Of a stretch of DNA of 64,000 bases, positions 991-27,947 are shown piece by piece. Source of the stretch: Candidatus Omnitrophota bacterium. GTDB taxonomy: Bacteria; Ratteibacteria; UBA8468; B48-G9; JAFGKM01. The position numbers and the translations under genes are program-made. The notes under the pieces were generated by a model. It ran no database searches. It saw only the letters and a program-made list of their open reading frames with translations, and was not told where the DNA came from. Numbering within the stretch: position 1 is the first letter of the stretch; the number at the start of each line of letters is the position of its first letter. The stretch is from assembly GCA_023819375.1 (NCBI GenBank), contig JAMWDI010000001.1:107685-171684 (forward strand), in the 5' to 3' direction.

Positions 991-1410
991 TCATTTTTTT
1001 GTTTTCAAAAGACATTCTTTGCAAGTTCCAATTAAATATATATGATGTTCTTCTACTTTATGCCCATTCACTTCTTTACATTTTATAATTGAACACATCT
1101 TAAAAATGTCATAGATTTTTTCACATTTTTTACATTTAAAATGTATGTGTGGTTTTTCAATAAAATCAAATTTAATTTGGTTTTCTTCAATTAAAATCTC
1201 TGAAAGTAATTTTTTTTGACAAAAAAGTTTTAAAGTATTGTAAACCGTTGTAATTGAAAGTGTTGGAATCTTTTTTACTAAATGTTTAAATATTTCATCA
1301 ACAGAAGGGTGAGTTTTATTCTCAATAAAATATTTAAAAACCTCAACTCTTTGGAAAGATGGTTTTATACCTTTCTCTTTGAATAACTTTAAAATTTCTT
1401 CTTTTTTCAT
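991..1410 (-). CDS. Fur-family metal-responsive transcriptional regulator (Fur/Zur/PerR not distinguished)
   Basis: 139 aa. N-terminal winged-helix region with SFQR motif, C-terminal His/Cys-rich metal sites (HIHFKCKKCEK, CKEC). Immediately upstream of the permease. Confidence 0.85.
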   Translation of the reverse strand: MKKEEILKLFKEKGIKPSFQRVEVFKYFIENKTHPSVDEIFKHLVKKIPTLSITTVYNTLKLFCQKKLLSEILIEENQIKFDFIEKPHIHFKCKKCEKIYDIFKMCSIIKCKEVNGHKVEEHHIYLIGTCKECLLKTKK

Positions 1411-1447
1411 ATTGTTTTAATTTTGTACTAATTACAATTTTAAAATA

Positions 1448-1475
1448 ATTTTATCTTTTTAAAAATTTTTGTCAA
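1448..1475 (-). promoter_or_regulatory. Sigma70-like promoter for the fur-permease operon (TTGACA, 16 nt, TAAAAT)
   Basis: On the minus strand, TTGACA at 1475..1470 and TAAAAT at 1453..1448, about 38 nt upstream of the fur ATG. GATAAAATTAT overlapping the -10 is a weak Fur-box-like sequence. Confidence 0.45.
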
Positions 1476-1492
1476 GTTAAATTTATAAAACC

Positions 1493-2293
1493 TTATTTTT
1501 CAAGGACTTCATTCATACTACCTGTTCTATATCCTTCAAGGTCAACTGTTATATATTTATAACCAAGCCTCTTAAATTTTTCTATAATCTTCTTTCTATA
1601 TTTAATCAACTTACTAATCTGATTCCTATCAACTTCAATTCTCGCCAATTCATTATAATCTCTTACTCTTACAATTTTAAATCCCAATGAATATAAAAAT
1701 CTCTCCCCTTTTTCAATTCTTTTCAACTTTTCCTCTACTATTTTTTCTCCATATGGTATTCTTGAAGCAAGGCAAGCCATTTGTGGTTTATTCCATGTTG
1801 GTAAATTTAACTTTTTTGAAATTTCTCTTATTTCCCTTTTTCCTATACCACAATCTTTAAAGGGAGAAATAACATTATAAATCTTTTTGGCCTTCTCCCC
1901 AGGTCTATAATCTTTTTCATCATCTTTATTTGTTCCATCAACAATAAATTTAAAATTATATTTCTTTTTTACTTCTTCAATTTTGCTGAATAATTCTTTT
2001 TTGCACCAAAAACATCTGTCAGGTGGGTTGTTGATAAAATTTCTATTTTTAAATTCCTCTGTTTTTAACTCAATTAATTTAACACCAAGTTTTTTACAGA
2101 AATCTTTTGCAAATTTCCTCTCTTCTTCTGGATAAACTGGAGAAATACCACAAACTGCAATTACATTATCTTTACCAAGAGTATCAACAGAAATTTTTAA
2201 CAAAAGAGAACTATCAACACCTCCAGAATATGCAACAATAATTTTTTCTAATCTTTTTATATATTCTTTTAACTTTTTAATTTTATCTACCAT
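1493..2293 (-). CDS. PP-loop ATP pyrophosphatase, LarE-like (TIGR00268-type) sulfurtransferase
   Basis: 266 aa. SGGVDSS PP-loop at the N-terminus, CxxC (DRCFWCKK) plus a conserved Cys in PQMACLASR. Last gene of the Fe-S/sulfur operon, start overlapping the nfu stop. Confidence 0.6.
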   Translation of the reverse strand: MVDKIKKLKEYIKRLEKIIVAYSGGVDSSLLLKISVDTLGKDNVIAVCGISPVYPEEERKFAKDFCKKLGVKLIELKTEEFKNRNFINNPPDRCFWCKKELFSKIEEVKKKYNFKFIVDGTNKDDEKDYRPGEKAKKIYNVISPFKDCGIGKREIREISKKLNLPTWNKPQMACLASRIPYGEKIVEEKLKRIEKGERFLYSLGFKIVRVRDYNELARIEVDRNQISKLIKYRKKIIEKFKRLGYKYITVDLEGYRTGSMNEVLEK

Positions 2294-2523
2294 TAATCTT
2301 CAACTTCGACAACTTCTTTTACTTCAGGAACTCTATCTTTTATAATAGCCTCTATTCTCATCTTCAAAGTTATTTGAGAAAAAGGACACCCTCTACAAGC
2401 ACCTGTTAATTTCACTTTAACAATTCCATCTTTTGCTTCAACTATTTCACAATCGCCACCTTCTGCTTGCAAAAAACCTCTTACATCTTCAATTGCTTTT
2501 TCAACCTTTTCTTTTAAATCCAT
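2293..2523 (-). CDS. NifU C-terminal domain (Nfu-type) Fe-S carrier protein
   Basis: 76 aa with the CxxC motif (TGACRGCP) characteristic of Nfu/NifU C-terminal domains. Confidence 0.75.
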   Translation of the reverse strand: MDLKEKVEKAIEDVRGFLQAEGGDCEIVEAKDGIVKVKLTGACRGCPFSQITLKMRIEAIIKDRVPEVKEVVEVED

Positions 2524-2542
2524 TTGGCCTCCTTTTATTCTA

Positions 2543-3277
2543 TTATTCTATGTCTTTCCCTAAAATTCCATTTTTTGTTAAATTTATATCTGGATATCCA
2601 TCATTTGCTGGTAAAATTTCTTTTGCTTTTCTAAATTCAACATGACCATCAACAAATAAATAATTTCTACTTCCTTCCCAACTCCACCATCCATTATTCC
2701 CACCTGTGTGATTATCAAGCCATTCTGCAATTATTATTTTTTTGGTAGGATATGCAACCTGTGAAATTTTTTGACCTACTGTAGGAAAAATTTTATTTTT
2801 ATCATATGTATAACTTTTGTCATCCATCTGGTTAATCTGTTCTGGAGAGTGATAAAAACTCATTGAATATCCATATGAAGTAGATTCCCATTTAGTTGGT
2901 GCAGTTTTATCAGAAGGACAGTGAAAAATATCTTTTGGTCTTGAAAATCTCTTTTTAATTTTGTCATAAGAATATGGATTTATATTTACAAAATAAGGGC
3001 CTATAAGAATTCTCCATCCACGTCCCATCCATAGCCAGTAACCTTCAGGAAATGGATCTTGATATGCAGGGAAAAAACCTTCATAATCATCCGTATACAT
3101 TGAAAACGCAATATATATCTGTTTTAAATTATTCATACATACTGCCTGTCTTGCCCTTTCTCTTGCTTTACTTAACGCAGGCAAAATTAAACTTGATAAA
3201 ATTGATACTATCATAACTACTACTAATAATTCAATTAAAACAAAACCATTACTTTTTATTTTTCTTTCTATAGTCAT
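2543..3277 (-). CDS. Prepilin-type N-terminal cleavage/methylation domain protein with DUF1559-like C-terminal region
   Basis: 244 aa. Short basic leader then G-FVLIELLVVVMIVSILSSLILP (class III signal). C-terminal NYLFVDGHVEF resembles the DUF1559 signature. Overlaps iscU by 29 nt. Confidence 0.65.
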   Translation of the reverse strand: MTIERKIKSNGFVLIELLVVVMIVSILSSLILPALSKARERARQAVCMNNLKQIYIAFSMYTDDYEGFFPAYQDPFPEGYWLWMGRGWRILIGPYFVNINPYSYDKIKKRFSRPKDIFHCPSDKTAPTKWESTSYGYSMSFYHSPEQINQMDDKSYTYDKNKIFPTVGQKISQVAYPTKKIIIAEWLDNHTGGNNGWWSWEGSRNYLFVDGHVEFRKAKEILPANDGYPDINLTKNGILGKDIE

Positions 3278-3638
3278 TAATTGCTGCTTTTAATCCTTCT
3301 TCTGCAAGTAATGAGCAATGTTTTTTTATTGGTGGAAGACCTCCAAGGAATTCAACCACATCTTTATTTGATATTTTTTCTGCTTCAGACAATGTCTTTC
3401 CTTTTGCAAGTTCAGTAACAACTGAACTTGTTGCAATTGCTGCAGCGCAACCAAAAGTTTCAAATTTTATATCCTCAATTATCTCTTCTCCCTTTTCATT
3501 TTTTCTAACTTTTATATATATCCACATTACATCACCACAAACAGGATTTCCAACTTTACCTATACCATCTGCATTTTCAATTCTTCCCATATTTCTTGGA
3601 TTTCTAAAATATTCAAGTACTTTTTCTGTATAGTCCAT
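3249..3638 (-). CDS. iscU: Fe-S cluster assembly scaffold IscU/NifU-N
   Basis: 129 aa. Three conserved Cys contexts (PVCGD, FGCAAAIATSS, KKHCS) as in IscU. Confidence 0.8.
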   Translation of the reverse strand: MDYTEKVLEYFRNPRNMGRIENADGIGKVGNPVCGDVMWIYIKVRKNEKGEEIIEDIKFETFGCAAAIATSSVVTELAKGKTLSEAEKISNKDVVEFLGGLPPIKKHCSLLAEEGLKAAINDYRKKNKK

Positions 3639-3673
3639 TTTTTATTTCCTGCTTTGAAGTTGGAATTTTGAAA

Positions 3674-4585
3674 TTAAACATATTCAAGCATCCTCTCAAG
3701 CGATACTTTTGCTTTCTCTAAAATATCTGGTTTTAAATTTATCTCATATTTTTCTTCTTTCAAAGATAAATATAATTTTTCAATTGTTATCTTTTTCATA
3801 TTTGGACATATTTTACCAGAACCAAGCGAATAAAATTCTTTCTCAGGATTTTCTTTTTTAAGTCTATGCAATAATCCTTCTTCTGTTCCTATTATAAATA
3901 TTTTTGAGTTTGACTCTTTTGCTCTTTTTAACATACCAGAAGTTGAATATATACCATCTGCAAGTTTTTGAATTTCTGGGTCACATTCAGGATGAACAAT
4001 TATTTCAGCATTTGGATATTTTTCCCTTGCTTTTTTTACCTCTTCTACAGTAAATTTTCTATGAACAAAACAATAACCATCCCAACATATTATCTCTTTT
4101 TCAGAAACTTTTTGCTTCACATACCAACACAGGTTTTTATCAGGCAAAAATATAATTTTCTTTGCAGGAACATTTCTTACAACTATATCAGCATTTGCAC
4201 TTGTACAACAAACATCTGATATACTTTTAACATCTGCATTTGTATTTACATAGGAAACAATCCAGGCATCAGGATATTTTTCTTTCATCTTTAAAACATC
4301 TTGGTATTTTGCCATATCTGCCAAAGGACATCCAGCATCTAAATCTGGAAGTAAAACTTTTTTATCAGGTGATAATATTTTTGCTGTTTCAGCCATAAAT
4401 TTAACTCCACAAAATACAATAATTTTTGCATCTTTAACTTGGCTTGCCTTTCTTGCAAGTTCAAGAGAATCACCAACAAAATCAGCCAAATCCTGAATTT
4501 CTGGAATTTGATAATTATGGGCAAGAATTATTGCTTCTTTTTCTTTTTTTAATCTTAAAATTTCCTCAATCATTTCTTCTCCCAA
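3674..4585 (-). CDS. nadA: Quinolinate synthase
   Basis: 303 aa with NadA-typical length and conserved blocks (ILAHNYQ, VHPEC, Cys ligands). Confidence 0.8.
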   Translation of the reverse strand: MGEEMIEEILRLKKEKEAIILAHNYQIPEIQDLADFVGDSLELARKASQVKDAKIIVFCGVKFMAETAKILSPDKKVLLPDLDAGCPLADMAKYQDVLKMKEKYPDAWIVSYVNTNADVKSISDVCCTSANADIVVRNVPAKKIIFLPDKNLCWYVKQKVSEKEIICWDGYCFVHRKFTVEEVKKAREKYPNAEIIVHPECDPEIQKLADGIYSTSGMLKRAKESNSKIFIIGTEEGLLHRLKKENPEKEFYSLGSGKICPNMKKITIEKLYLSLKEEKYEINLKPDILEKAKVSLERMLEYV

Positions 4586-5739
4586 AATGGACTCATTTTT
4601 CTTAATTTTTCAACTATCTTTGGTAATACATCAAGAACTTTATCAACATCTTCTTCTTTATTATATTTACCAAGGGAAAACCTTAAAGAACCATGCGCGA
4701 TTTCAGGTGGAATTCCAATTGCAAGTAAAACATGACTTGGTTCAAGTGAACCAGATGTACATGCAGAACCACTTGAAGCATAAATTTTTTCAAAATCAAG
4801 ATTTAAAAGAATACTTTCTCCTTCAACATATTTAACACACAAATTTAATGTATTATATAAGCGATTTTCAGGATGTCCATTTATAATAATTTCAGGTATA
4901 TTTTCCATTATTCCTTTTTCAAGTTTATCTCTTAAATATTTCACCTTCTTTGCCTCTTCTTCCATTTCTTCTTTTGCTATCTCGCAGGCTTTTCCAAGAC
5001 CTATAATACCTGGAACATTATAAGTCCCTCCTCTTTTTCCTTTCTCCTGTTCTCCACCGTGAATAAATGTCTCAATTTTTGTTCCTTTTTTTATATAAAT
5101 TGCTCCAACTCCTTTGGGACCATAAAATTTATGTGCAGATAAAGAAATTATATCAACTCCAAGTTTTTTCACAGAAACAGGAATTTTGCCAACTGTCTGA
5201 ACACAATCTGAGTGAAAATATATACCATTTTCTTTTGCTATTTTTGCTATTTCTTCAATTGGCTGGATTGTTCCTATCTCATTATTTGCATGCATTATTG
5301 TTATTAAAATTGTTTCTTTTTTAATTGATTTTCTTATAAAATCAACATCAACAACTCCATATTTATCAACTGGTGCATATGTAATTTCATATCCAATTTT
5401 ACTTAAAAATTTACAGGTATTCAAAACAGCATGATGCTCTATCTGACTTGTAATTATATGATTTCCTTTATTTTTTAAAGCAAAAGATATTCCCTTTATA
5501 GCCCAGTTATCACTTTCTGTCCCTCCAGAAGTAAAGAATATTTCTTCTGGTTCTGCATCAATCAATTCTGCAACTTTCTGCCTTGCTTTTTCTATTTCTT
5601 TTTTATTTTCTCTTGCTATTTCATAAATTGAACTGGGATTTCCAAATTTTTCAAAAAAATAATCTTTCATAACTTCTAAAACCCTCGGATCCGTTGGTGT
5701 TGTCGCATTATAGTCCATATAAATTGTTTTATTTTCCAT
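4570..5739 (-). CDS. iscS: Cysteine desulfurase (NifS/IscS class, PLP-dependent)
   Basis: 389 aa. PLP-lysine region SLSAHKFYGPKGVGAIYI and active-site loop SSGSACTSG. Overlaps nadA by 16 nt. Confidence 0.85.
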   Translation of the reverse strand: MENKTIYMDYNATTPTDPRVLEVMKDYFFEKFGNPSSIYEIARENKKEIEKARQKVAELIDAEPEEIFFTSGGTESDNWAIKGISFALKNKGNHIITSQIEHHAVLNTCKFLSKIGYEITYAPVDKYGVVDVDFIRKSIKKETILITIMHANNEIGTIQPIEEIAKIAKENGIYFHSDCVQTVGKIPVSVKKLGVDIISLSAHKFYGPKGVGAIYIKKGTKIETFIHGGEQEKGKRGGTYNVPGIIGLGKACEIAKEEMEEEAKKVKYLRDKLEKGIMENIPEIIINGHPENRLYNTLNLCVKYVEGESILLNLDFEKIYASSGSACTSGSLEPSHVLLAIGIPPEIAHGSLRFSLGKYNKEEDVDKVLDVLPKIVEKLRKMSPFWEKK

Positions 5740-5748
5740 TTTTAAATT

Positions 5749-6153
5749 TTAAATGGTTGATATCATTGCATTCGTTGGACATCCCTTTATGCATAATTCA
5801 CATGCAATACATTTTTCTGGTTCAAATTTAACTTCATATGTATTTCTATTAAGGTATAAAGCCCCTGTTGGACACAAAGCAATACAAACTGAGCAATCCG
5901 TACATCTTTCTTTTATCATTCTTATATCACTCTCTATTAGTTGAATTTTTACTCCTTTACTTTTTAATTCTTCTACCGCATCAAAAACATTTTTTTCTTC
6001 TCCTGAAAAAGCAATTACAAGTGTTCCTTCCTCTTCAGGAGAGACAAAGGCTTTTAAAATGTTAAATTCAAGATTGTATTTCCTCACAATAGTTGAAATT
6101 ATTGGCTTATCAACTAAAACTGGCGGGAAATGCATTACAAATTTTTTTTCCAT
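5749..6153 (-). CDS. NIL-domain / 2x[4Fe-4S] ferredoxin fusion protein (homocysteine biosynthesis partner type)
   Basis: 134 aa. N-terminal NIL domain (LEFNILKA) followed by two CxxCxxCxxxCP ferredoxin motifs. Sits directly downstream of the DUF39 gene, the classic pairing. Confidence 0.7.
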   Translation of the reverse strand: MEKKFVMHFPPVLVDKPIISTIVRKYNLEFNILKAFVSPEEEGTLVIAFSGEEKNVFDAVEELKSKGVKIQLIESDIRMIKERCTDCSVCIALCPTGALYLNRNTYEVKFEPEKCIACELCIKGCPTNAMISTI

Positions 6154-6154
6154 A

Positions 6155-7348
6155 TTATACCTCCTTCATTGGTTTAAATTTATATCCTGATTCTGGACCA
6201 GGGAAATAGAAAATTGGTTCAGTTAATAAAAATTCACCACTTTCAATCCACTTTTTTAAAATTTCTGCTATTTCTTTTGCCTTTTTATAACTTGACAGAG
6301 AACCGGTTGGAATTTCTTTTCCCATCAATTTTATCTTCCCACTTTTCAGTTGTGAGTAATTTACATAATCTAAAATATTTCCTGTTGAATTTGGATAATC
6401 ATAACTGTAATCAACTACAGGTGCATAAATCTCTTCATCAGGTATACTTACCCAATTTAATATTTCTTCATTCAAAATTGGTATTGGAATACCAACACCA
6501 ACTATTAAACTCGTTCCATATCCTGTTAAACTTGCTCCTTTTAAAAATTCTACTTTCATCTGTTTTAAATCACCAATTAAAGCAAGCGTTGCTCCAGGAA
6601 TAGTAGGTACTCCATTTTCCCTTCGTTTTACACCTGGATTATATTGAGTCCCCCACCAACAAACATACCCAATCCCTCCTCCAAGAAAAATCCTTGTCCC
6701 AAATCCAATAGTTTTCAAATATGGATCTTTTAAAAGTGGTGATAATTGCCCTGCTGAACAATAATTTGCATTTCCGAGATTTGGTTTTAAGACTCCCATG
6801 TAAGTATAAATTGTTTTATTTGAAAGATTGACTGCAACATTATAATTCTGATAACAATTTCTTGGATTAAAAAGTATTGCTTCATTTATATCATTTATTG
6901 TAATTTTTGTCTTTAAATATTTTTTTGGATAACAGTCAGTGCCATATGCATAGGCAACAAGTTCAATTTCTTTTCCACTTACTAAATCTTCAATTACATG
7001 TCCACCACCATATTTAAACTCGCCTGGATATTTAGTATTCCTTGGATCATCATCTGGCAAAGCAGTCGCTCCAAGATAAACATCAACAGCAGCAAGTCCA
7101 GAATAAGCAGGGACATTATTTAAATATACTCTTCCTCCACCCATTTTGATTTTTTCTTTTGAATGACCAAAATTTAAAAATACACCAGAAGAACACATAG
7201 GGCCAAAAGTTCCAGTTGTTACAACATCTACCTCTTTTGCGAGTTTTTTAACATTTGTAGATTTTTTTAATTCAATTATTTCATCTGCTGTTAAAACTAC
7301 TACTTCTCCTCTTTTTATTTTTTCATTTATTTCTCTTATCGTTTTCAT
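6155..7348 (-). CDS. DUF39/COG1900 homocysteine biosynthesis protein (putative aspartate-semialdehyde sulfurtransferase)
   Basis: 397 aa. GTFGPMCSSG-type glycine-rich core. Adjacent to a NIL-ferredoxin gene and between cysK and the cysteine desulfurase. Confidence 0.6.
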   Translation of the reverse strand: MKTIREINEKIKRGEVVVLTADEIIELKKSTNVKKLAKEVDVVTTGTFGPMCSSGVFLNFGHSKEKIKMGGGRVYLNNVPAYSGLAAVDVYLGATALPDDDPRNTKYPGEFKYGGGHVIEDLVSGKEIELVAYAYGTDCYPKKYLKTKITINDINEAILFNPRNCYQNYNVAVNLSNKTIYTYMGVLKPNLGNANYCSAGQLSPLLKDPYLKTIGFGTRIFLGGGIGYVCWWGTQYNPGVKRRENGVPTIPGATLALIGDLKQMKVEFLKGASLTGYGTSLIVGVGIPIPILNEEILNWVSIPDEEIYAPVVDYSYDYPNSTGNILDYVNYSQLKSGKIKLMGKEIPTGSLSSYKKAKEIAEILKKWIESGEFLLTEPIFYFPGPESGYKFKPMKEV

Positions 7349-7360
7349 TTTTAACTCCTT

Positions 7361-8272
7361 TTAAAAAACTGATAGATACCTTTCACCTGTGTCTGGCAAA
7401 ATAACAACTATTATTTTACCACTATTTTCTTTTCTTTTCCCAATCTTTATTGCAGCAAAAGTAGCAGCACCTGATGAAATTCCACATAATATCCCTTCTT
7501 CTCTTGCTAATCTTTTTGCTGTCTCTATTGCATTCTCGTCGGATACTTTTATTATTTCATCAATTACTTTTAAATTCAATACATCTGGTATAAAACCAGC
7601 ACCGATACCTTGAATTTTATGTCTTCCTGAAAACCCTCCAGATAAAACAGGAGATTTTTCTGGTTCAACAGCAACAATTTTTACATCTTTTTTCCTCTGT
7701 TTTAGCACCTCTCCTACGCCAGTTATTGTTCCTCCAGTCCCTACCCCAGCCACAAATATATCAATTTTCCCATCTGTATCTCTCCATATTTCTTCTGCGG
7801 TTGTCTTTCTATGTATCTCTGGATTTGCTGGATTTTTAAACTGTTGCGGCATAAACGAATTTTTATATTTTTTTAACAATTCTTCTGCTTTTTTTACTGC
7901 TCCTGTCATACCTTCATCTGCTGGTGTTAATACAATTTCAGCACCAAACAAAGATAATAATTTCCTTCTCTCTATACTCATACTCTCTGGCATTGTTAAA
8001 ATTAATTTATATCCTCTTTGTGCACATACAAAAGCAAGACCAATCCCAGTATTTCCACTTGTTGGTTCAATTATAACTGTATCTTTATTTATAAGTCCTT
8101 TTTTTTCAGCATCTTCAATCATACTTACTGCAATCCTATCTTTTACTGAACCACATGGGTTAAAAAATTCAAGTTTTGCATAAATCTCTGCGTAACATCC
8201 TTTCACAACTTTATTCAATTTTACAAGTGGAGTATTCCCAATCAATTCTGTTATATCCTTTGCAAATTTCAT
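7361..8272 (-). CDS. cysK: Cysteine synthase / O-acetylserine sulfhydrylase family (PLP-dependent)
   Basis: Track ORF 7361..8326; I prefer the ATG at 8272 ([19 protein letters not shown]), which has a GGGGAG Shine-Dalgarno 6-10 nt upstream. PLP-binding SVKDR, glycine loop [10 protein letters not shown]. Confidence 0.8.
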
Positions 8273-8288
8273 AAATTTCTCCCCATTT

Positions 8289-8738
8289 TTAGATTTCGTA
8301 AAAGATAACTTTTTTGTCTCTTTCATTCAATTCTTTTTGCTTTTTTATTAATTCATCTAGAGTTATATTATCAAGATATTCCAAAATTTTTTCTTTTATA
8401 TTACACCATAATTTTCTCGCCACACATATTTCACTTCTTTCACATATTTTGCTTTTTTCAACACATTCCGTTGGAGATATTGTGCCTTCAAGGATTTCAA
8501 TTATTTCTTTAATTTTAATTTCTGATGGATCTCTCAAAAAAGCATATCCTCCCTTGCCACCTTTTGCACTTCTTAAAATTCCTGCTTTTTTCAATGTAAG
8601 CATAATATGCTCAAGATATCTTTCTGATAAATTCTGCCTTTTTGCAATATCTTTAACAAAAATTGGTTTTCCTTTATAATAAACTCCAAGATCTATTAAT
8701 GCTCTTAATCCATACCTTGTTCTTGTTGAAATTTTCAT
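8289..8738 (-). CDS. Rrf2-family transcriptional regulator (IscR/NsrR-like, probable Fe-S sensor)
   Basis: 149 aa. N-terminal HTH ([11 protein letters not shown]), C-x6-C-x5-C cluster ([14 protein letters not shown]) matching the cluster-ligand spacing of Fe-S Rrf2 proteins. First gene of the operon. Confidence 0.85.
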
Positions 8739-8744
8739 TTTAGT

Positions 8745-8804
8745 TATTTATTATTTTTGTTATCATATTACTAATATTATACTTAAAATTTTAAAAAATG
8801 TCAA
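8745..8804 (-). promoter_or_regulatory. Consensus promoter (TTGACA, 17 nt, TATAAT) plus candidate operator for the Rrf2-led operon
   Basis: Minus strand: TTGACA (8804..8799), 17-nt spacer, TATAAT (8781..8776), then ATTAGTAATATGATAACAAAAATAATAAA. Contains the inverted repeat ATATTA-G-TAATAT. The same block recurs upstream of hcp. Confidence 0.55.
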
Positions 8805-9033
8805 ATTTTTTTCTTCCAATTAATTCCTTCCATTTTTTCTCGCCTATACATTCTTTTGCATATTTACACCAGTCAATACAGGATGGCATTTCTCTATAAA
8901 CATAACTTTTACACTTTGGACATCTTGTTCTTACTTCATCACTAAATATTTCAACTTCATATCCACATTTTTCACATTTTTTAACTTCAACTTTTAAAAA
9001 TCTTGGGTCTATTCCAGGACATTTCATAACCAA
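8791..9033 (-). CDS. Small Cys-rich zinc-ribbon/rubredoxin-like protein
   Basis: 80 aa with 8 Cys including CEKCGY and CPKC pairs. Overlaps the upstream ferredoxin-domain gene by 10 nt; last gene of the hcp operon. Confidence 0.4.
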   Translation of the reverse strand: MVMKCPGIDPRFLKVEVKKCEKCGYEVEIFSDEVRTRCPKCKSYVYREMPSCIDWCKYAKECIGEKKWKELIGRKKFDIF

Positions 9034-9854
9034 CCTTCCTCTAATATTTCTCCCTTTAAACTTATTACAACTTTTTTTATAGGAATTTTCTTACCACTTT
9101 TTTTAACCCCTTCTTCAACTATTTTCAAAAGACCACTGCAACAAGGAACTTCCATTATAGCAACTGTTATTGTATTTATATTGTTATTAGTAACTATTTG
9201 ACTTATTTTTTCTATATATCTATCAATACCTGTATCAAGTTTAGGGCAGGCAATTATAATTGTTTTCCCTTTTATAAAATCATTATGAAAATTACCATAT
9301 GAATATGCGGTGCAGTCAGCAGCAAAAAGCAAATCCACCTTTTTAAAATATGGAGCAGATGGACTTACAAGATGAAGTTGTATTGGCCATTGTTTAAGTT
9401 GAGATTTAATTTCTACATTTGGTTTACTCTCTTCAGTTTCTTCTCTTCTATCAACAATTTTCACTCCGGGACAACATGAAACTTCAAAAATTTCTGATAT
9501 GTCTATCTCAATATTTTTTTCTTTTAATACCTCAAGTGCCTGTTTTAGATATTCTGTTTCACCATGTTCTTTCAAATGTTTTAAATGAGCAATAATCGTA
9601 TTTTTCCCTTTTTTTATTATATTTTCCATTGTCTTTTTCTCATCATACTCTTCTGCTTCTTTTTCAACAATTTTTATTGCACCAACCGGACAACTACCGA
9701 TACAAGCACCAAGTCCATCACAAAATAAATCACTTATAAGTCGTGCTTTTCCATCTATAATCTGTAATGCACCTTCTGGACAATTGGGGATACACTTTCC
9801 ACATCCAGTACATTTTTCCTCATCAATTTCAATAATTTTTCTTTTCATAAACAC
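9024..9854 (-). CDS. 4Fe-4S dicluster ferredoxin-domain protein (putative Hcp redox partner)
   Basis: 276 aa. N-terminal CTGCGKCIPNCP and CDGLGACIGSCP motifs; C-terminal domain with CCPG and CCSG pairs. Immediately downstream of hcp. Confidence 0.55.
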   Translation of the reverse strand: MFMKRKIIEIDEEKCTGCGKCIPNCPEGALQIIDGKARLISDLFCDGLGACIGSCPVGAIKIVEKEAEEYDEKKTMENIIKKGKNTIIAHLKHLKEHGETEYLKQALEVLKEKNIEIDISEIFEVSCCPGVKIVDRREETEESKPNVEIKSQLKQWPIQLHLVSPSAPYFKKVDLLFAADCTAYSYGNFHNDFIKGKTIIIACPKLDTGIDRYIEKISQIVTNNNINTITVAIMEVPCCSGLLKIVEEGVKKSGKKIPIKKVVISLKGEILEEGWL

Positions 9855-9857
9855 CCC

Positions 9858-11162
9858 CTATTTTAAAATTTCCTTTAAATCCTTTTCTGGTTCTTCAACA
9901 AGTTTTAAATTAAATTCACTTACCAAATATTTTAAAATTTCTTCATTTATCCATGCAGGTATAATTGGACCTATTCTAATCCCTTTAATTCCAAGATATA
10001 ATAAAGACCATAAAATCGCTACTGCTTTCTGTTCCATCCACATTAAAAAATAAGAAACAGGTAAATCATTAATATCTTTAACATTAAAAAGTTCTGCCAA
10101 AGAAGAGATTATATCTATTCCAACTATTGCATCATTACACTGGCCTATATCTATAAGTCGTGGTACCCCTTCAATATCACCAAGAGCCAAATCATTAAAT
10201 CTAAATTTTCCACAAGCAAGAGTTATTACAATTGTATCCTTTGGTAATATTTCAACAAGTTTTCTAAAATATTCATTTTTATTTGTAGGACTATCACATC
10301 CTCCAATAACAAAAACTCTTCTTATTTTACCGTTTTCTATCAGTTCCTTTATTTTTTCTTTTGAAGACAAAATTGATGATAAAGAAAAACCAGTTGTTAA
10401 AATAGTATCTCCATTTTTTTCAGGTAAATCAGGTAATGTTTTTGCTTTTTCAATGACCTCTGAAAAATCATATCCAGTTATATGTTTAACTTCTGGAAGT
10501 CCTACAATGCCTGTTGTAAAAATTCTATCTTTATATTCATCTTTTGGAATTAAAACACAATTGGAACTTCCAACAATACAAGCAGGAATTTCTGAAAATA
10601 ATTTTTTCTGGTCATACCATGCCTTTCCCAAATTTCCAATAAGATTATCATATTTTCTTATGCCTGGATATCCATGAGCAGGTAAAAGTTCTGAATGAGT
10701 ATAAACATTTATTCCTTTATCTTTGGATTGTTTTAAAATTTCCTCAAGAACTTTTAAACTATGACCTGTAACTATTATACCTTTCCCTTTTCTTGTTCCT
10801 GTAAATACTTCAACTGACTCTGGTTCTCCATATGTTTCAATATGTGCTTTTTTTAACAATTTCATTGTTTCTATATTTATTTTTCCAATATCAAGGGCAA
10901 GTTTAATAAATTTTTCAGTATCAAAATTCACATTTGTTAATGTTGAATATAAAGTTTCAACAAGAAATTTCTCAAGTTTACTGTTTCTATATCCAAGTTC
11001 AGATGCATGATAAAGATAAGCACTTATACCTTTAAGACCAAAAATTAAATTATCCTGCAATCTTGATAATGTTGGACTTTTACCACATACACCATAATTT
11101 ATACATCCTTTTCCCTGACTTGTTTGACTACACTGATAACAAAACATTTTAAAATCTGCCAT
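9858..11162 (-). CDS. hcp: Hybrid cluster protein (prismane; hydroxylamine reductase)
   Basis: 434 aa. Hallmark N-terminal MFCYQCSQT...GC motif and multiple conserved Cys/His/Glu ligand blocks. GGAGG Shine-Dalgarno upstream. Confidence 0.85.
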
Positions 11163-11167
11163 ATTTC

Positions 11168-11228
11168 CTCCTTTTATTACTTTTATTATCGTTTTACTAA
11201 TATTACATTAAATTTATTTTTTTGTCAA
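11168..11228 (-). promoter_or_regulatory. Promoter (TTGACA, 17 nt, TAATAT) plus candidate Rrf2-type operator upstream of hcp
   Basis: Minus strand: TTGACA (11228..11223), 17-nt spacer, TAATAT (11205..11200), then TAGTAAAACGATAATAAAAGTAATAAA and GGAGG. The downstream block matches the Rrf2-operon element at 29 of 33 aligned positions. Confidence 0.5.
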
Positions 11229-11239
11229 GTGAATTTTTT

Positions 11240-11782
11240 TCAACATGTAAATAAAATTTTAAAACCAATGAGAATTAAAATTATTCCGGCAAAAAGTTCA
11301 AGTTTATTTCCAAAAAACTTTTTAATTTTCTCTCCAATATAAAAACCAATCAAACAGACAATGAAAGTTGTAAGACCAATTATTAAAGAAGGAGTTAAAA
11401 CCTGTATTTTTAAAAGAGAAAAGGTAAGGCCCACAGCATAAGCATCAAAACTTGTTGCCAAAGAGAGAAAGAATAAAACAGATAATTTTGCAATATCAAT
11501 TGTTTTTTTTAATTTACCCGATTCGTAAATTATTTTTATTCCAATTATAAATAAAATTAAAAAAGCAACAAGATGATCAAACTCAGAAATATATCTCAAA
11601 AATTTTATACCTGTTAAATATCCTAAAATTGGCATAAAAAATTGAGAAAAGCCAAATGAGAAGGATATTTTAAAACTATTAAGAATTTTCCTTTTAGCAA
11701 TTAATGTTCCAGAAATTACAGAAACAGAGAAAGCATCTATAGAAAGAGAAAGACCAATTAAAAAATTTATAAAAATGTTCAT
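11240..11782 (-). CDS. mntP: Manganese efflux pump MntP-like (DUF204 repeat membrane protein)
   Basis: 180 aa, hydrophobic, two DUF204-type repeats (LSIDAFSVSV and ATSFDAYAVG). Confidence 0.6.
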   Translation of the reverse strand: MNIFINFLIGLSLSIDAFSVSVISGTLIAKRKILNSFKISFSFGFSQFFMPILGYLTGIKFLRYISEFDHLVAFLILFIIGIKIIYESGKLKKTIDIAKLSVLFFLSLATSFDAYAVGLTFSLLKIQVLTPSLIIGLTTFIVCLIGFYIGEKIKKFFGNKLELFAGIILILIGFKILFTC

Positions 11783-11784
11783 TT

Positions 11785-12795
11785 GTGATAAAATATTTTA
11801 ATTTAAAATTTAGGAATTTAAAAATGATTTTCATTTTTACTCTTCTTTTTTCTTTTTATATGGGTTGGTCAATGGGGGCAAATGATGCAGCAAATTGTGT
11901 TGGTGCTGATATTGGTTCTGGTGTTATGAAAGTCAGAGAAGGAATAATCATAACAATCTTTTTCTCATTTCTTGGAGCAATTTTACTTGGCTCTAACGTA
12001 ATAAAAACAATAGGTAAAGGTGTTGTTCCTTTAGATATTTTACCTTATGATGTAGCAATTCTAATAAGTTTAACTGCACTATTTGGAGCAAGTACATGGG
12101 TTACAATAGCAACTTATAAAAAAATTCCTGTTTCAACAAGTCATTCAATAGTTGGTGCAGTTGCGGGAGCAGGACTTGCTTTTTCTACACCAATTTATTG
12201 GTATAAAATAGTTCAAATTGTAATATGTTGGATTTTAACACCAGTTGGTTCAGCAATAATTTCTTTTCTGATTTTCCCGATTATTAAATTTATTTTTAGT
12301 CTAAAACCTGTTAAAAAAATTGAAAAACAACTTGTAATTATTTTTATTTATCTTACAAGTGCTTATCTGGCTTTTTCTTGGGGGGCAAATGATGTTGCCA
12401 ATGCAACAGGAGTCTTGATTGGAACAGGTAGAATTACTCCAAAACTTGCAAGTTTAATTGGAGCAATTGCTATAGCAATAGGAGTTTCAACTTGGGGATA
12501 TAAAGTAATAGAAACAGTTGGTTTTAATATTATAAGATTATCACCCTTAATGACAATCGCAGCAGAAATTGGTTCTTCTTTAAATGTTCATCTTTATACA
12601 CATCTTGGTATCCCAGTTTCAACCTCTCATTCAATTGTTGGTGCAATATGGGGAATAGGTTTATATCAGGGTATAAAAGCAATAAATTTGAAGATAGCAA
12701 AAGAAATTATTTTGACATGGGCTATAACACCTTTGTTTTCAGGTATAATATCTTATGTGGTCACAAAATTAATTTTAATTTTTATAGGAGGTTAA
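11785..12795 (+). CDS. Inorganic phosphate transporter, PiT family
   Basis: 336 aa. Duplicated PHO4 signature GANDAAN / GANDVANATG, polytopic membrane protein. True start may be a downstream Met (about 11824). Confidence 0.8.
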   Translation: MIKYFNLKFRNLKMIFIFTLLFSFYMGWSMGANDAANCVGADIGSGVMKVREGIIITIFFSFLGAILLGSNVIKTIGKGVVPLDILPYDVAILISLTALFGASTWVTIATYKKIPVSTSHSIVGAVAGAGLAFSTPIYWYKIVQIVICWILTPVGSAIISFLIFPIIKFIFSLKPVKKIEKQLVIIFIYLTSAYLAFSWGANDVANATGVLIGTGRITPKLASLIGAIAIAIGVSTWGYKVIETVGFNIIRLSPLMTIAAEIGSSLNVHLYTHLGIPVSTSHSIVGAIWGIGLYQGIKAINLKIAKEIILTWAITPLFSGIISYVVTKLILIFIGG

Positions 12796-12797: not shown

Positions 12798-13466
12798 ATG
12801 GAAAAAACAAGAAATATTTTATTCTGGCTTGGACAAAAAGAGGAAAGAGAAATACTCAATGATGAACTTAAACATGTTGAAATATCTTTAAAATGTGTAG
12901 AAGAAATGAAAAATGCGGTTGAATGCTTTGTTAAAGGGAAAATAGAGGAAAAGAATACACATATAGCAAATGTAAAAAATTTTGAACATCTGGGAGATGA
13001 TATAAGAAAAAAAATTACACTTGAATTGTCAAAGGGCTTACTTTTTCCTCCGGATAGAGAAGACCTCTTAATTTTAAATGAAGGACTAAATGATATTGCT
13101 GATGGGGCAAAGGGAATTGCAAGATTACTTGAATTTTTTGAGGAAAAAATAACAGAAGATATGGGAAATTCTTTACTTTCATTTTCTATAATTACATTGA
13201 AAGCAGGAGAAAAACTCAAAGATGCAATTGATTCATTAATAAAAAATGATATTCAGAAATTACTTGAAGATTGTGCTAATATTGAAACACTTGAAGAAGA
13301 GGGAGATGACAGAAGACGAGAACTTATCAGAGAATTAATTAAAGAAAATTTATCTGCTCCAAAAGCAATTCTCCTTTATGAAATTATTGATACTATGGAA
13401 AATTTGACAGATAGTATAAAAAAAGCAGGTGATTTGGTTAGAATCTTAGGTATAAAATCAAAATGA
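12798..13466 (+). CDS. DUF47/PhoU-like phosphate transport regulator (Pit accessory protein)
   Basis: Track ORF 12648..13466; I place the start at ATG 12798 (MEKTRNILFWLG), 3 nt after the pit stop. Helical bundle with DUF47-like blocks; typical partner of PiT. Confidence 0.65.
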   Translation: MEKTRNILFWLGQKEEREILNDELKHVEISLKCVEEMKNAVECFVKGKIEEKNTHIANVKNFEHLGDDIRKKITLELSKGLLFPPDREDLLILNEGLNDIADGAKGIARLLEFFEEKITEDMGNSLLSFSIITLKAGEKLKDAIDSLIKNDIQKLLEDCANIETLEEEGDDRRRELIRELIKENLSAPKAILLYEIIDTMENLTDSIKKAGDLVRILGIKSK

Positions 13467-14314
13467 ATTCTTTTAATCCAGAAAGTTATAAAAAGAAAAT
13501 TTACAAAATAATTTCAAAATATAAACTAGTTCAAGAAAATGACAAAATCTTCATAGGGCTTTCCGGAGGAAAAGATAGTGGTTGTGCATGTTTTGTTTTA
13601 TCTGAATATATTAGAGAAAAAAAATTGAAATGTGAGTTAGTTGCTTTTTATATTAAACTTGGAGATTTTATACCTGAGAGAGTAATTGAAACAATTAAAA
13701 AACAAACTGAAGTAGCACAAATTCCTTTAAAAATTTATGATATTAAGGATTTTGGAATATCCTATAAAAAAATAGGAACACTTAATAGACCTATATGTAG
13801 TAGTTGTGGAACAATTAAAAGGTATCTCATGAATAAAATAGCAAGAGAAGAAGGTGCCACAAAATTATGTACAGGACATCATGGAGATGATTTTATTGTT
13901 TTTTTTATGAAAAATATTCTTGGAAAAAATATTGAATGGATCTCAAAATTTACTCCATTACTTGAAGGAAAAGGAAAACAACTTACAAGAATAAGGCCAT
14001 TATTTTTTGGCAATGGAGAAGATAATAAAAACTTCTGTGATTTTATAAATTTCCCTTATATTCAAGAAGATGTTTGTCCTCATTTTTTCCTGAAACAAAA
14101 AATTGATAAAAGAAGAGAAAAATGGTATGAAGTCATAAGAGAAATATCAAAATGGCAACCAAATTTTAGAGAATATTTTTTAGAAGGAATTATAGAAATT
14201 GCAAAAATTTTATCTTTAAATCAGAAAGAACCCTTGGAATGTAAAATATGTGGAGAACCAACGAATAAAGAAATATGCTCTTTTTGCAGGTTATTAAAAT
14301 TTCATAAAGATTAA
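13463..14314 (+). CDS. PP-loop ATPase of the TtcA/TtuA (tRNA thiolation) type
   Basis: 283 aa. SGGKDS PP-loop, CSSCG and GHHGDD motifs, C-terminal CxxC...CxxC zinc finger. ATGA overlap with the DUF47 gene. Confidence 0.55.
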   Translation: MNSFNPESYKKKIYKIISKYKLVQENDKIFIGLSGGKDSGCACFVLSEYIREKKLKCELVAFYIKLGDFIPERVIETIKKQTEVAQIPLKIYDIKDFGISYKKIGTLNRPICSSCGTIKRYLMNKIAREEGATKLCTGHHGDDFIVFFMKNILGKNIEWISKFTPLLEGKGKQLTRIRPLFFGNGEDNKNFCDFINFPYIQEDVCPHFFLKQKIDKRREKWYEVIREISKWQPNFREYFLEGIIEIAKILSLNQKEPLECKICGEPTNKEICSFCRLLKFHKD

Positions 14315-25212: not shown

Positions 25213-26880
25213 ATGGAAAGAAAAGAATTAGGACAGATTTTACTTGAAAAGGGTTTAATTACGCTTGAACAATTAAATGAAGCACTTGAATTACAAAATG
25301 AAACAAAAAAATTTCTGGGAGAAATACTTATTGAAAAAGGTTATATAAAAAAAGAAGATATCTGGCAAGCATTAACTGAACAAAAAAAAGCAGATTCTGT
25401 GTCTCTATCAAAACTAAAAGGTTTAAAGCCAGAAATTGTAAAAATTATAGATGAAAATATAGCAAGAAGGTTTATTTGTATTCCAATAGCAAAAGAAGAT
25501 GATATTTTGGTAGTTGCAATGAAAGATCCAGCCGATATAGTTGCAATAGATACTTTAAGAAGACTAACAGGATATAAAATTAAAGTAGTTAAAGGTGATG
25601 AAAAAGAAATAATTGAGTTTTTAGATAAATTTTTCTCTAGTTTTGACACTTTTCCAGAAACAATTTCAGAACTTGAAGAAATTTCAGAAGAAAAAGAAGA
25701 ATTAGACGTAGATCAACTTAAAGTTGCTGCTGAAGATGCACCTGTGATTAAATTTGTCAATTCTTTATTTGCAAATGCTATTGAAAAAAGAGCCACGGAT
25801 ATTCATCTTGAACCAGGTGAAAGAAATGTTTATATAAGATTCAGAATAGACGGTGTCCTTTATAATTTTACTTCACCTCCAAAAAGTTCATATCCTGCAA
25901 TTGTAACAAGAATTAAAATTTTATCAAATCTTGATATTGGAGAAAGAAGATTACCACAGGATGGAAGATTTAAGATAAAATTAAGAGAAAAAGAAGTTGA
26001 CGTAAGAGTTTCAACTCTACCTACTATTTATGGGGAAAAGGTAGTTTTAAGATTATTAGATAAAGAAAAACTTGTTTTAGATTTAGAAATGCTTGGATTT
26101 GAAAAAGAAGAATTAGAAAAATTCAAAAAAGCATTGAAAAGACCATATGGAATGATAATAGTAACAGGACCAACTGGAAGTGGGAAAACAACAACTTTGT
26201 ATTCTGGATTGAGTTTTATAAACACCCCTGAAAAAAATATAATTACAATTGAAGATCCTGTTGAATATCAACTTGAAGGAATAAATCAGGTTCAGGTTAA
26301 ACCTAAAATAGGATTAACATTTGCAAATGTATTAAGACATATTTTAAGACAGGACCCAGATGTAATTATGGTTGGCGAAATAAGAGATTTAGAAACTGCT
26401 CAAATAGCAATTCAAGCCTCTTTAACTGGACATCTTGTTATAACTACTTTACATACAAATGATACTGTATCTACAATTTCTAGACTTTATTATATGGGCG
26501 TAGAACCATATCTTATAGCAGACGCAGTGACTATTGTTATTTCACAAAGATTGGTAAGAAAAATTTGTAGTGAGTGCAAAATAATTGATAAGAAAGATAC
26601 AGAAACACTTAAAAATTTAGGATATAAAGAATTTATTGCATATAGAGGGAAAGGATGCTCTTTTTGTAATTACACAGGGTATTATGGAAGAATAGGAATT
26701 TTTGAAGTTTTAGAATTTACAGAAGGGATAAGAGAAATGATTCTTAATAAAAAAAGTGATGACGAAATACGGGATTATGCTATAAAACTTGGCATGAAAA
26801 CTTTAAAAGAATCTGCTATAAAAAAGGTCATTGATGGAATTACATCTCTTCCTGAAGCAATGACGGTAACAATTATATGA
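25213..26880 (+). CDS. pilB: Type IV pilus assembly ATPase PilB (GspE family)
   Basis: 555 aa. N-terminal T2SE_N domain, Walker A GPTGSGKTT, Asp and His boxes, C-terminal CxxC...CxxC tetracysteine. Confidence 0.9.
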   Translation: MERKELGQILLEKGLITLEQLNEALELQNETKKFLGEILIEKGYIKKEDIWQALTEQKKADSVSLSKLKGLKPEIVKIIDENIARRFICIPIAKEDDILVVAMKDPADIVAIDTLRRLTGYKIKVVKGDEKEIIEFLDKFFSSFDTFPETISELEEISEEKEELDVDQLKVAAEDAPVIKFVNSLFANAIEKRATDIHLEPGERNVYIRFRIDGVLYNFTSPPKSSYPAIVTRIKILSNLDIGERRLPQDGRFKIKLREKEVDVRVSTLPTIYGEKVVLRLLDKEKLVLDLEMLGFEKEELEKFKKALKRPYGMIIVTGPTGSGKTTTLYSGLSFINTPEKNIITIEDPVEYQLEGINQVQVKPKIGLTFANVLRHILRQDPDVIMVGEIRDLETAQIAIQASLTGHLVITTLHTNDTVSTISRLYYMGVEPYLIADAVTIVISQRLVRKICSECKIIDKKDTETLKNLGYKEFIAYRGKGCSFCNYTGYYGRIGIFEVLEFTEGIREMILNKKSDDEIRDYAIKLGMKTLKESAIKKVIDGITSLPEAMTVTII

Positions 26881-27947
26881 GCATTATAAATATCAATGAT
26901 ATTCTTAAATTCGCTGTTGAAAAAAAAGCATCAGATATTCATATTCTTGCAAAGTTAAGACCTCACATAAGAATAAATGGAGAATTGCAACCAACTCCCT
27001 TTCCAGTTTTATCAAATGAAGAATGTAAAAACCTTGTTTATTCTATTTTAAATGAGGAGCAAATAAAAATATTTGAAAAAACAAAAGAACTTGATTTTTC
27101 TTATGGAATAGAAGGTATTGGGAGATTTAGAATAAATTTGCATTACCAGAGAGGAACTATAGGAATAGCAATAAGACCGATAAAGGATACAATTCCAACT
27201 TTTGAAGAACTTGGGCTTCCTTCCGATGTTATAATAAAAATGCTATCAAATCCTTATGGATTGATTCTAATTTGTGGACCAACAGGAAGTGGCAAGTCAA
27301 CTACTCTTGCCTCAATGATAGAATATTTAAACGAAACAAAACCACTTCACATAATTACAATTGAAGATCCCATAGAATATCTTTTTAAATACAAAAAATC
27401 TATAGTAGAACAAAGAGAACTCGGACAGGACACATATTCCTTTGCAGAGGCATTAAAAAGAGTTTTAAGGCAAGATCCAGATGTTGTTTTAATTGGAGAA
27501 ATGAGAGATAAAGAAACAATTGAATCTGCTTTGAGAATAGCAGAAACAGGACATCTCGTTCTTTCTACCTTACACACAGGAGAAGTTGTTCAAGCAATGG
27601 GAAGAATTGTAAATGTTTTTCCGGGTGAGCAACAATTAACAATAAGAACACAACTTTCACTTGTGCTAATAGGTGTAATTGTTCAACAATTAATTCCGCG
27701 GAAAGATGGAAAAGGCAGAGTTCTTGCAACTGAAATTATGGTTGTAACACCAGCAATTAGGAGTTTAATCAGGGAAGGGAATTTTGCTCAGATTTATTCA
27801 CAAATTCAACTTGGAGGAGAATATGGAATGAAAACAATGAATTCTTCTTTAATTTCACTTTATAAAAAGGGTTTAATTTCTAAGGAAGACATGATAAGTA
27901 GAAGTCCGAATATAAAAGAGTTAAAATTATTGTTAGGAGAAAAATAA
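26877..27947 (+). CDS. pilT: Type IV pilus retraction ATPase PilT
   Basis: 356 aa. Walker A GPTGSGKST, TIEDPIEY, GEMRD, HLVLSTLHT motifs. ATGA overlap with pilB. Confidence 0.9.
   Translation: MSIININDILKFAVEKKASDIHILAKLRPHIRINGELQPTPFPVLSNEECKNLVYSILNEEQIKIFEKTKELDFSYGIEGIGRFRINLHYQRGTIGIAIRPIKDTIPTFEELGLPSDVIIKMLSNPYGLILICGPTGSGKSTTLASMIEYLNETKPLHIITIEDPIEYLFKYKKSIVEQRELGQDTYSFAEALKRVLRQDPDVVLIGEMRDKETIESALRIAETGHLVLSTLHTGEVVQAMGRIVNVFPGEQQLTIRTQLSLVLIGVIVQQLIPRKDGKGRVLATEIMVVTPAIRSLIREGNFAQIYSQIQLGGEYGMKTMNSSLISLYKKGLISKEDMISRSPNIKELKLLLGEK

Follow-up and report, generated by a model that had tools for sequence, protein, structure and literature searches.

A 64,000-nt stretch of a Candidatus Omnitrophota genome (contig JAMWDI010000001.1, forward-strand positions 107,685 to 171,684; hereafter the window) carries ten tightly packed minus-strand genes, running from 8738 to 1493. 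They encode an Rrf2-family regulator, cysteine synthase (CysK), a DUF39 protein with its NIL-ferredoxin partner (NIL/Fd), the iron-sulfur (Fe-S) cluster assembly proteins NifS, IscU and Nfu, quinolinate synthase (NadA), a DUF1559 prepilin-like protein and the sulfur insertase LarE. We consider it probable that these genes are best explained as one Rrf2-headed sulfur and Fe-S operon, predicted to share its regulator with a neighboring operon for the hybrid cluster protein (hcp) and producing NadA and LarE as clients of the Fe-S machinery. A single sulfur unit under one Rrf2 regulator had been proposed in a first-pass annotation of this DNA, and is supported here by conserved synteny and by a promoter-plus-operator architecture upstream of rrf2 in 20 loci of several phyla.

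Results

Gene content and junctions of the cluster

The cluster comprises the following genes, in order of transcription:

8289-8738, minus strand: rrf2, Rrf2-family regulator, 149 aa (PF02082, 133 bits)
7361-8272, minus strand: cysK, cysteine synthase A, 303 aa (TIGR01139, 487 bits vs cut-off 351)
6155-7348, minus strand: DUF39/HcyBio protein, L-aspartate-semialdehyde sulfurtransferase type, 397 aa (PF01837, 508 bits)
5749-6153, minus strand: NIL plus 2x[4Fe-4S] ferredoxin, 134 aa (PF09383, 51 bits, and Fer4 dicluster families)
4570-5739, minus strand: nifS, class I NifS-type cysteine desulfurase, 389 aa (TIGR03402, 602 vs cut-off 531)
3674-4573, minus strand: nadA, quinolinate synthase, 299 aa (NF006878, 437 bits)
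3249-3638, minus strand: iscU, IscU-type scaffold (NifU_N), 129 aa (PF01592, 158 bits)
2543-3277, minus strand: DUF1559 prepilin-type protein, 244 aa (PF07596, 45 bits; TIGR02532)
2293-2523, minus strand: nfu, Nfu-type Fe-S carrier, 76 aa (PF01106, 89 bits)
1493-2293, minus strand: larE, ATP-dependent sulfur insertase of the [4Fe-4S] class, 266 aa (TIGR00268, 329.5 bits vs cut-off 150)

All ten open reading frames (ORFs) lie where the first-pass annotation had placed them, with two start codons revised. Its statement that the genes are separated by overlaps or gaps of at most 35 nt matches the revised junctions, which range from -29 to +35 nt (from rrf2 to larE: +16, +12, +1, +9, -4, +35, -29, +19 and -1). 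The ten family names assigned earlier likewise agree with Pfam and NCBIfam profile searches, the IscU product scoring slightly under the cut-off of TIGR03419 (185.1 vs 187.9). For cysK, translation most likely starts at ATG 8272, preceded by the ribosome-binding site GGGGAG and yielding 303 aa, rather than at 8326, where the longest ORF begins; orthologues measure 302-305 aa. The nadA ATG at 4573 overlaps the nifS stop codon as ATGA and the larE junction overlaps as TAATG, arrangements which imply that both pairs would be translationally coupled. GGAG-type Shine-Dalgarno sequences precede most downstream genes, with no obvious site at nifS, larE or the pilin gene. G+C content of the region is 29%.

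The gene set recurs in relatives

One genome per species was scanned with a DUF39 alignment, and the window proteins were mapped onto the 80 loci (numbered L) that this returned from other genomes. The gene immediately downstream of DUF39 is NIL/Fd in 60 loci, and the one immediately upstream is cysK in 32. On the same strand and within 10 kb of DUF39 we found rrf2 in 36 loci, nifS in 27, nadA in 22, nfu in 17, iscU in 15 and larE in 13, a clustering that, judged from gene positions, is beyond chance. The set is kept in relatives, in nearly the same order in close ones and permuted in others, which answers the question of conserved gene order raised by the first-pass annotation. L006, with 74% DUF39 identity, reads rrf2-cysK-thi4-DUF39-NIL/Fd-nifS-nadA-iscU-rseC-nfu-larE-mnmA, and the closer relatives L086, L090 and L092 follow this order with small differences. 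In L087 and L088 the unit begins with hcp in place of rrf2 and ends with mnmA in place of larE. About ten Omnitrophota genomes show the permuted order rrf2-cysK-nfu-DUF39-NIL/Fd-larE-nifS(-iscU), with nadA ~5 kb further on, and the core rrf2-cysK-DUF39-NIL/Fd occurs across several phyla. Adjacency of nifS and nadA is retained in L006 and L086-L092, with the ATGA coupling kept in all close relatives, and larE directly abuts nifS in 9 of 14 related loci. The additional genes found in relatives again encode sulfur-insertion enzymes (Thi4, ThiI, MnmA). As the same gene set recurs in different orders, it can be regarded as a functional unit, probably a conserved, Fe-S-sensing sulfur regulon.

One Logan assembly breaks inside nadA, and a chimeric assembly was therefore considered. 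It was rejected because L086, L089, L090 and L092 carry nifS-nadA-iscU unbroken. Exact protein matches place the window genes on metagenome contigs, and the closest homologues of the DUF39 and DUF1559 proteins carry the label Candidatus Ratteibacteria or Omnitrophota.

Two further features of the relatives were noted. A 363-aa protein without Pfam match, absent from the window, is encoded between rseC and nfu in L086 (14401-15492) and L092 (~10750-11800). Upstream in L086 (1-4400) lies a second sulfur cluster, comprising a sulfite-reductase-like/TusA fusion, a PALP enzyme, ThiS, ThiF, a stand-alone NIL protein and a second Thi4.

A predicted Rrf2 operator at the rrf2 and hcp promoters

Upstream of the ten genes, the following elements and genes were identified:

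8776-8804, minus strand: operon promoter TTGACA-17-TATAAT, 12/12 consensus positions
8751-8774, minus strand: predicted Rrf2 operator TTAGTAATATGATAACAAAAATAA, 24 bp, beginning 1 nt after the -10 hexamer
11228-11200, minus strand: promoter-like site of the hcp operon (8791-11228), with an operator copy adjoining
11200-11177, minus strand: operator copy TTAGTAAAACGATAATAAAAGTAA, 20/24 identical to the rrf2 operator and abutting the -10 region of the hcp promoter
11162-9858, minus strand: hcp, hybrid cluster protein
9848-9024, minus strand: ferredoxin-like protein (AF_0155 domain), hcp operon
9027-8791, minus strand: small Cys-rich protein without family assignment, hcp operon

The rrf2 promoter is the best promoter match in the 13 kb scanned; it sits in the 52-nt gap upstream of rrf2, with 37 nt between the end of its -10 hexamer and the rrf2 ATG. 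The same architecture is found in other genomes, with TTGACA-17/18-TATAAT (or TATACT) upstream of rrf2 in 20 loci of several phyla. In 16 of these 20, a 24-bp palindrome of the form yTACyA-N12-TrGTAr directly follows the -10 hexamer, and the window has an element at that position too, giving 17 of 21 aligned rrf2 promoters with the window included. The predicted operator would cover the expected transcription start of the rrf2 promoter.

Apart from the hcp copy, the 64 kb contain no other site with 5 or fewer mismatches to the rrf2 operator. A site as close as this copy arose somewhere in 11 of 300 simulated windows, a count in which promoter position was not required. In the closest relative, L092, the hcp and rrf2 promoters both carry the matching element ...AAATGATAAT(A/G)AAAGTAATAAA, and this lineage-specific comparison (hcp, L092) is more informative than a matrix built from other phyla. 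The top match of that matrix (2748-2725, minus strand, 13.6 bits) falls inside the pilin gene, ~200 nt before nfu, and was judged to be a probable chance product of Lys and Ile codons. A riboswitch or other RNA leader was also considered; Rfam at gathering thresholds gave only one tRNA in the window. Because a 20/24 operator copy abuts the hcp promoter, the Rrf2 regulon is predicted to extend past the ten genes to the operon of hcp, the ferredoxin and the small protein. We infer that Rrf2 is an autoregulated repressor, and the same holds for its binding to these sites and for the signal that it senses. The small Cys-rich protein is kept beside hcp/fd or the pilin gene in L008, L013, L028, L086, L090, L092 and L099.

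A probable Fe-S-type Rrf2 regulator

The regulator has an Rrf2 winged-helix domain (PF02082, 132.8 bits; TIGR00738, 130 bits). Cys92, Cys99 and Cys105 (C-x6-C-x5-C) are invariant in 27 orthologues, defined as the products of rrf2 genes adjoining cysK or DUF39. The best solved relative is the regulator 4CIC (Thermincola potens IscR, 110 bits); CymR structures lack the Cys segment seen in the window protein. Given the three invariant Cys, the likeness to 4CIC and scores below the cut-offs of the named groups, the protein is therefore probably an Fe-S-type Rrf2 of a subfamily outside the named ones.

Residue 8 varies among the orthologues. Asp is found at this position in L008, L013, L014, L016, L023, L037 and L050, all except L037 labelled Omnitrophota and six of the seven with a CTACTA-type left operator arm; the window clade has Arg. 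In NsrR, Asp8 provides the fourth cluster ligand, and the Asp8 and Arg8 subgroups may bind their cluster differently.

NsrR controls hcp in enterobacteria. The regulator could also be mainly an NsrR-type nitrosative or oxidative sensor with hcp as its primary target, the sulfur and Fe-S operon then being a repair regulon that answers cluster damage. The near-identical operator at the hcp promoter would fit, as would the direct joining of hcp to cysK-DUF39-... in L087 and L088, its position beside the locus in L092, L099 and L020, the perR-like oxidative-stress cluster that follows larE, and the Omnitrophota subgroup with Asp8. The window protein, however, has Arg8 and scores lower with NsrR (51 bits) than with CymR (122) or IscR (112), and rrf2 pairs with cysK in 36 of the 80 loci vs 3 of 80 for hcp. 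We therefore regard a mainly nitrosative or oxidative sensor as unlikely; it departs from the preferred explanation in the sensed signal only, the architecture being the same.

A probable single transcription unit

We infer co-transcription of the ten genes as one sigma-70-driven operon with rrf2 as its first gene. No intergenic promoter comparable to that of rrf2 was seen in the sequence of the cluster, and no terminator-like hairpin was found at any cluster junction or at the cluster end, the single minus-strand match lying within nifS. The perR-like gene that follows larE has its own 11/12 promoter (TTGACA-16-TAAAAT, 1475-1448).

A compact genome could also pack several independent units side by side, for instance rrf2-cysK-DUF39-NIL/Fd next to nifS-nadA-iscU-...-larE, with Rrf2 controlling only part of them. 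In other phyla the two halves are indeed often apart, rrf2-cysK-DUF39-NIL/Fd standing alone and nifS/iscU lying elsewhere or on the opposite strand (L032, L074, L075), and in the window itself a promoter-like TGGACA-16-TATAAT (11/12, 4879-4852) lies within nifS, upstream of nadA, with a 35-nt gap ahead of iscU. Seven of the nine junctions, however, are overlaps or gaps of 1-19 nt without room for promoters, and the ATGA and TAATG overlaps point to coupled translation. Promoter-like matches are no commoner than in shuffled sequence (59 observed vs 70 shuffled); only position and quality set the rrf2 promoter apart from the others. Moreover, close relatives keep both halves joined in the same order. 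An arrangement of separate units thus appears rather improbable.

DUF39 and NIL/Fd as a predicted homocysteine route

DUF39 and NIL/Fd, with a third protein, COG2122, are genetically required for homocysteine synthesis in Methanosarcina and Desulfovibrio, and form a homoserine-independent homocysteine route (PMC5764234). The assignment of the window pair to this route in the first-pass annotation is upheld by profile searches, which place both proteins within the pathway families and not in unrelated ones. PF01837 covers the DUF39 protein over its full profile (positions 1-349 of 349, 508.5 bits), and NIL/Fd starts 1 nt after the DUF39 stop codon. Cys52 and Cys139 of DUF39 are invariant in 18 homologues and are candidate persulfide carriers; a search for a solved DUF39 structure found none. 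Read from its genes, the pair is predicted to make homocysteine.

A minimal Fe-S assembly set with NadA

The Fe-S assembly genes encode a class I NifS and a single-domain IscU, with no HscAB, Fdx or IscA within the cluster. NifS-like and IscU-like proteins constitute the minimal "MIS" Fe-S system (PMC13066941), and the chaperone-free NifS and IscU encoded here match it in gene content. In Bacillus subtilis, NifS directly assembles the NadA cluster (PMC13066941). The window NifS is unlikely to be dedicated to NadA, since the operon encodes no other desulfurase and also includes a general scaffold and carrier. Neither NadB nor NadC was found in the Pfam annotation of 44-64 kb of the window, a part in which a look-up of the protein encoded at 54108-52918 gave no match. 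NadA and LarE are best read as Fe-S clients, apparently made together with their maturation system. NadA may in addition feed the nicotinate pool behind the LarE substrate, in which case the pairing of the two would be more than coincidence.

LarE as a predicted nickel-pincer cofactor enzyme

The last gene of the cluster had been described as LarE-like and as a PP-loop sulfurtransferase. The family name stands (TIGR00268), and an enzyme of nickel-pincer cofactor synthesis that is also an Fe-S client fits better than a generic sulfurtransferase. The protein aligns with L. plantarum LarE (5UDQ) at 183 bits and has the SGGVDS PP-loop, Cys94-x-x-Cys97 and Cys174, the latter shifted by one residue relative to L. 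plantarum Cys176. Ser180, Arg212 and Arg214 (L. plantarum numbering), which bind the P2CMN phosphate, are identical in the phmmer alignment to 5UDQ. The CxxC...C motif and the one-residue shift mark the [4Fe-4S] class of LarE, which IscS resupplies with sulfur in vitro (PMC9283937). A candidate recipient of the cofactor lies 36 kb from larE:

38137-39405, minus strand: LarA-family enzyme, dependent on the nickel-pincer cofactor (PF09861 Lar_N; NF052594, 190 bits vs cut-off 500)

This gene adjoins that of a 2-hydroxyacid dehydrogenase (37137-38174, minus strand); its best match is a putative hexonate epimerase subfamily, under the cut-off. Its product is a likely client of LarE. We read LarE as a nickel-pincer enzyme because it passes the tests available for a LarE and because this LarA-family gene is present in the window.

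Very improbable, by comparison, is a role for the LarE homologue in sulfur delivery to the DUF39 homocysteine pathway or in another thiolation, filling the place of COG2122 in methanogens and Desulfovibrio: in about ten Omnitrophota loci larE does have NIL/Fd and nifS as its immediate neighbors on either side, neither the operon nor the window showed COG2122, and the window showed no LarB or LarC, but the TIGR00268 cut-off is exceeded more than twofold, the P2CMN phosphate-binding residues of L. plantarum LarE (PMC9283937) are kept, a LarA-family gene lies in the same window, and L087 and L088 have a DUF39 operon without larE.

A second PP-loop enzyme, TtuA/TtcA-like and probably a [4Fe-4S] sulfur-insertion enzyme of tRNA thiolation, is encoded at 13463-14314 on the plus strand, 2 kb beyond hcp; no operator copy was found before its gene.

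A DUF1559 prepilin-like protein conserved at the locus

The leader of the DUF1559 protein, MTIERKIKSNG/FVLIE, is a class III signal peptide with Gly-1, Phe+1 and Glu+5. Profile scores exceed the cut-offs (PF07596, 45.4 vs 23.3; TIGR02532, 23.3 vs 16.3), and the fold of the protein is also that of a pilin. No H-X9-DG model was among its NCBIfam matches at E<=0.001, and the His position of this motif reads as Trp200 (W-x9-D210-G211), which is invariant in the subfamily. The gene overlaps the 3' end of iscU by 29 nt and fills the slot held by RseC elsewhere.

As none of the 80 DUF39 loci had a homologue, the gene was at first assumed to be a random or recent insertion. This was rejected when orthologues (57-73% identity) were found in the hcp/sulfur locus of all eight informative close relatives (L086, L089-L092, L096, L098 and L099), at the following places:

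L089: between iscU and nfu, as in the window
L092: final gene of hcp-fd-small, directly ahead of rrf2
L086 and L090: between a small Cys-rich protein and ThiI, just upstream of rrf2; promoter with an operator-like element
L091: directly ahead of ThiI, just upstream of rrf2; on a contig that ends upstream of the pilin-like gene
L098: beside thi4
L099: beside fd-small
L096: 3.4 kb from cysK

More distant DUF1559 homologues (44-53% identity, ~65 loci) have no sulfur-locus link, except in L107 and L109, and the association is on this account regarded as clade-specific. Judged from gene order, this lineage has conserved the pilin-like gene as part of the locus through several rearrangements. Its product could take an active part in the Rrf2 sulfur/Fe-S/hcp regulon, for example as an envelope-exposed receptor for sulfide, polysulfide or iron-sulfide or an aid to their uptake, or as a membrane partner replacing RseC. 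We put this forward tentatively, as a possible but doubtful role, on the basis that the gene has stayed in the locus through at least four rearrangements, each time beside a sulfur-transfer gene or in an operon with a predicted operator. If true, this would place a member of the DUF1559 family, which is very large and uncharacterised in PVC-group bacteria, in a functional context for the first time.

The plus strand encodes, at 25213-36009, what looks like a full type IV pilus cluster (two T2SSE ATPases, T2SSF, pilins, PilM, secretin and a PilX-like protein), by which the DUF1559 prepilin could be processed and assembled; a prepilin peptidase was not among the genes seen in the window.

Neighboring oxidative-stress genes

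Directly adjoining the sulfur operon, in L089 as well as in the window, is an oxidative-stress cluster. It begins with a perR-like Fur-family gene (991-1490, minus strand), near which a 17-nt inverted repeat (1411-1427/1433-1449) could be the box of its product. Genes for an ArsP/HMA permease, rubredoxin, an ODP/flavodiiron-like protein, rubrerythrins and ferritins follow downstream (continuing in L002).

Discussion

Several observations weigh against a single Rrf2-headed operon with the functions proposed here. The Rrf2 protein falls under all equivalog cut-offs (IscR 112 vs 207.55, CymR 122 vs 195, NsrR 51 vs 182). Its gene has no Shine-Dalgarno sequence and follows an AT-rich leader (8739-8775) of ~30 nt. 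The window operator is a degenerate palindrome, with 4 of 6 arm positions and 7.2 bits in the matrix from other phyla, which ranks the window rrf2 site only 13th. The promoter-like site within nifS may act as an internal start, and no terminator was found after larE to mark the 3' end of the transcript. Among the Pfam annotations of the 64-kb window, COG2122 was not seen and LarB and LarC were not found.

The following mechanism is proposed. Cluster-loaded Rrf2, with its cluster held by Cys92, Cys99 and Cys105, would repress transcription via the ~24-bp operators at its own and the hcp promoters. Upon falling Fe-S supply, sulfide or cysteine supply, or cluster integrity, both operons would be expressed. 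CysK would then convert sulfide to cysteine, and DUF39 with NIL/Fd would make homocysteine from sulfide and aspartate semialdehyde. NifS would draw sulfur from cysteine, with IscU and Nfu building and delivering clusters, and the [4Fe-4S] clients NadA and LarE would be co-produced with this maturation machinery. The coupling of nifS to nadA would bring a sulfur donor together with its acceptor, and LarE, supplied with sulfur by the desulfurase, would synthesize the nickel-pincer cofactor needed by the LarA-family enzyme of the window.

For a sulfide-dependent anaerobe of a little-known uncultured lineage, one predicted Fe-S-sensing switch would thus govern sulfur fixation into both sulfur amino acids, minimal Fe-S assembly, the enzymes for NAD and nickel-pincer cofactor synthesis, and the hybrid cluster protein. 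The analysis also provides a candidate promoter-operator pair for an uncharacterised Rrf2 subfamily present in Omnitrophota, Chloroflexota, Desulfobacterota and other phyla, and points to a conserved but unexplained association of sulfur metabolism with a pilin-like protein of the DUF1559 family. Furthermore, it lends genomic support to the coupling of [4Fe-4S] LarE with a cysteine desulfurase, so far shown only in vitro with heterologous IscS. Current knowledge is not overturned; the analysis is of value for annotating the bacterial DUF39 pathway and the way it is regulated.

Comparison with known systems

All protein families of the cluster are known, the pilin-like protein excepted as an oddity, and, as far as we could find, the composite operon, the operator and the pilin link are undescribed. 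Closest to the last gene is the [4Fe-4S] LarE of Thermotoga maritima, with the same SGGxDS loop, CxxC...C motif with one-residue shift and phosphate binders (PMC9283937). The desulfurase genes of T. maritima are distant from larE (PMC9283937), whereas in the window larE lies in the same operon as nifS, iscU and nfu, and larB and larC are not adjacent to it. As in B. subtilis, the genes for a NifS-type desulfurase and for quinolinate synthase are coupled; unlike there, nifS is the sole desulfurase gene of an operon that also encodes a general scaffold and a carrier, and nadB and nadC are outside the cluster. A PF01837 protein together with a NIL/2x[4Fe-4S] protein is likewise found in Methanosarcina (MA1821-MA1822), Desulfovibrio (DvMF_1464 and DvMF_0262) and Dehalococcoides (DET0919-0921). 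In contrast to these studied systems, the window pair stands behind rrf2-cysK and beside Fe-S assembly genes, an arrangement also widespread in Omnitrophota, Chloroflexota and other phyla, with no COG2122 seen nearby.

With enterobacterial NsrR-hcp, the window shares an Fe-S Rrf2 repressor predicted to act on an hcp operon through an operator at the promoter. The window regulator differs in that it is predicted to cover sulfur assimilation and Fe-S assembly as well, and in its NsrR profile score of 51 bits. Most similar overall is the E. coli iscRSUA operon with its regulator IscR. Both begin with a gene for an Rrf2 protein with three ligand Cys and self-repression, predicted in the window, followed by a class I desulfurase and IscU, and in both a palindromic operator overlaps the promoter. 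The window Rrf2, however, lies under the IscR cut-off (112 vs 207 bits) and has the Cys spacing C-x6-C-x5-C, and the type 1 motif of IscR appears to differ from yTACyA-N12-TrGTAr. Unlike the isc operon, the cluster has no HscBA, Fdx or IscA, and adds cysK, DUF39-NIL/Fd, nadA, larE and the pilin-like gene. By analogy, the unit may thus be viewed as an IscR-type autoregulated isc operon to which both sulfur amino-acid pathways, two Fe-S clients and a pilin-like protein have been added.

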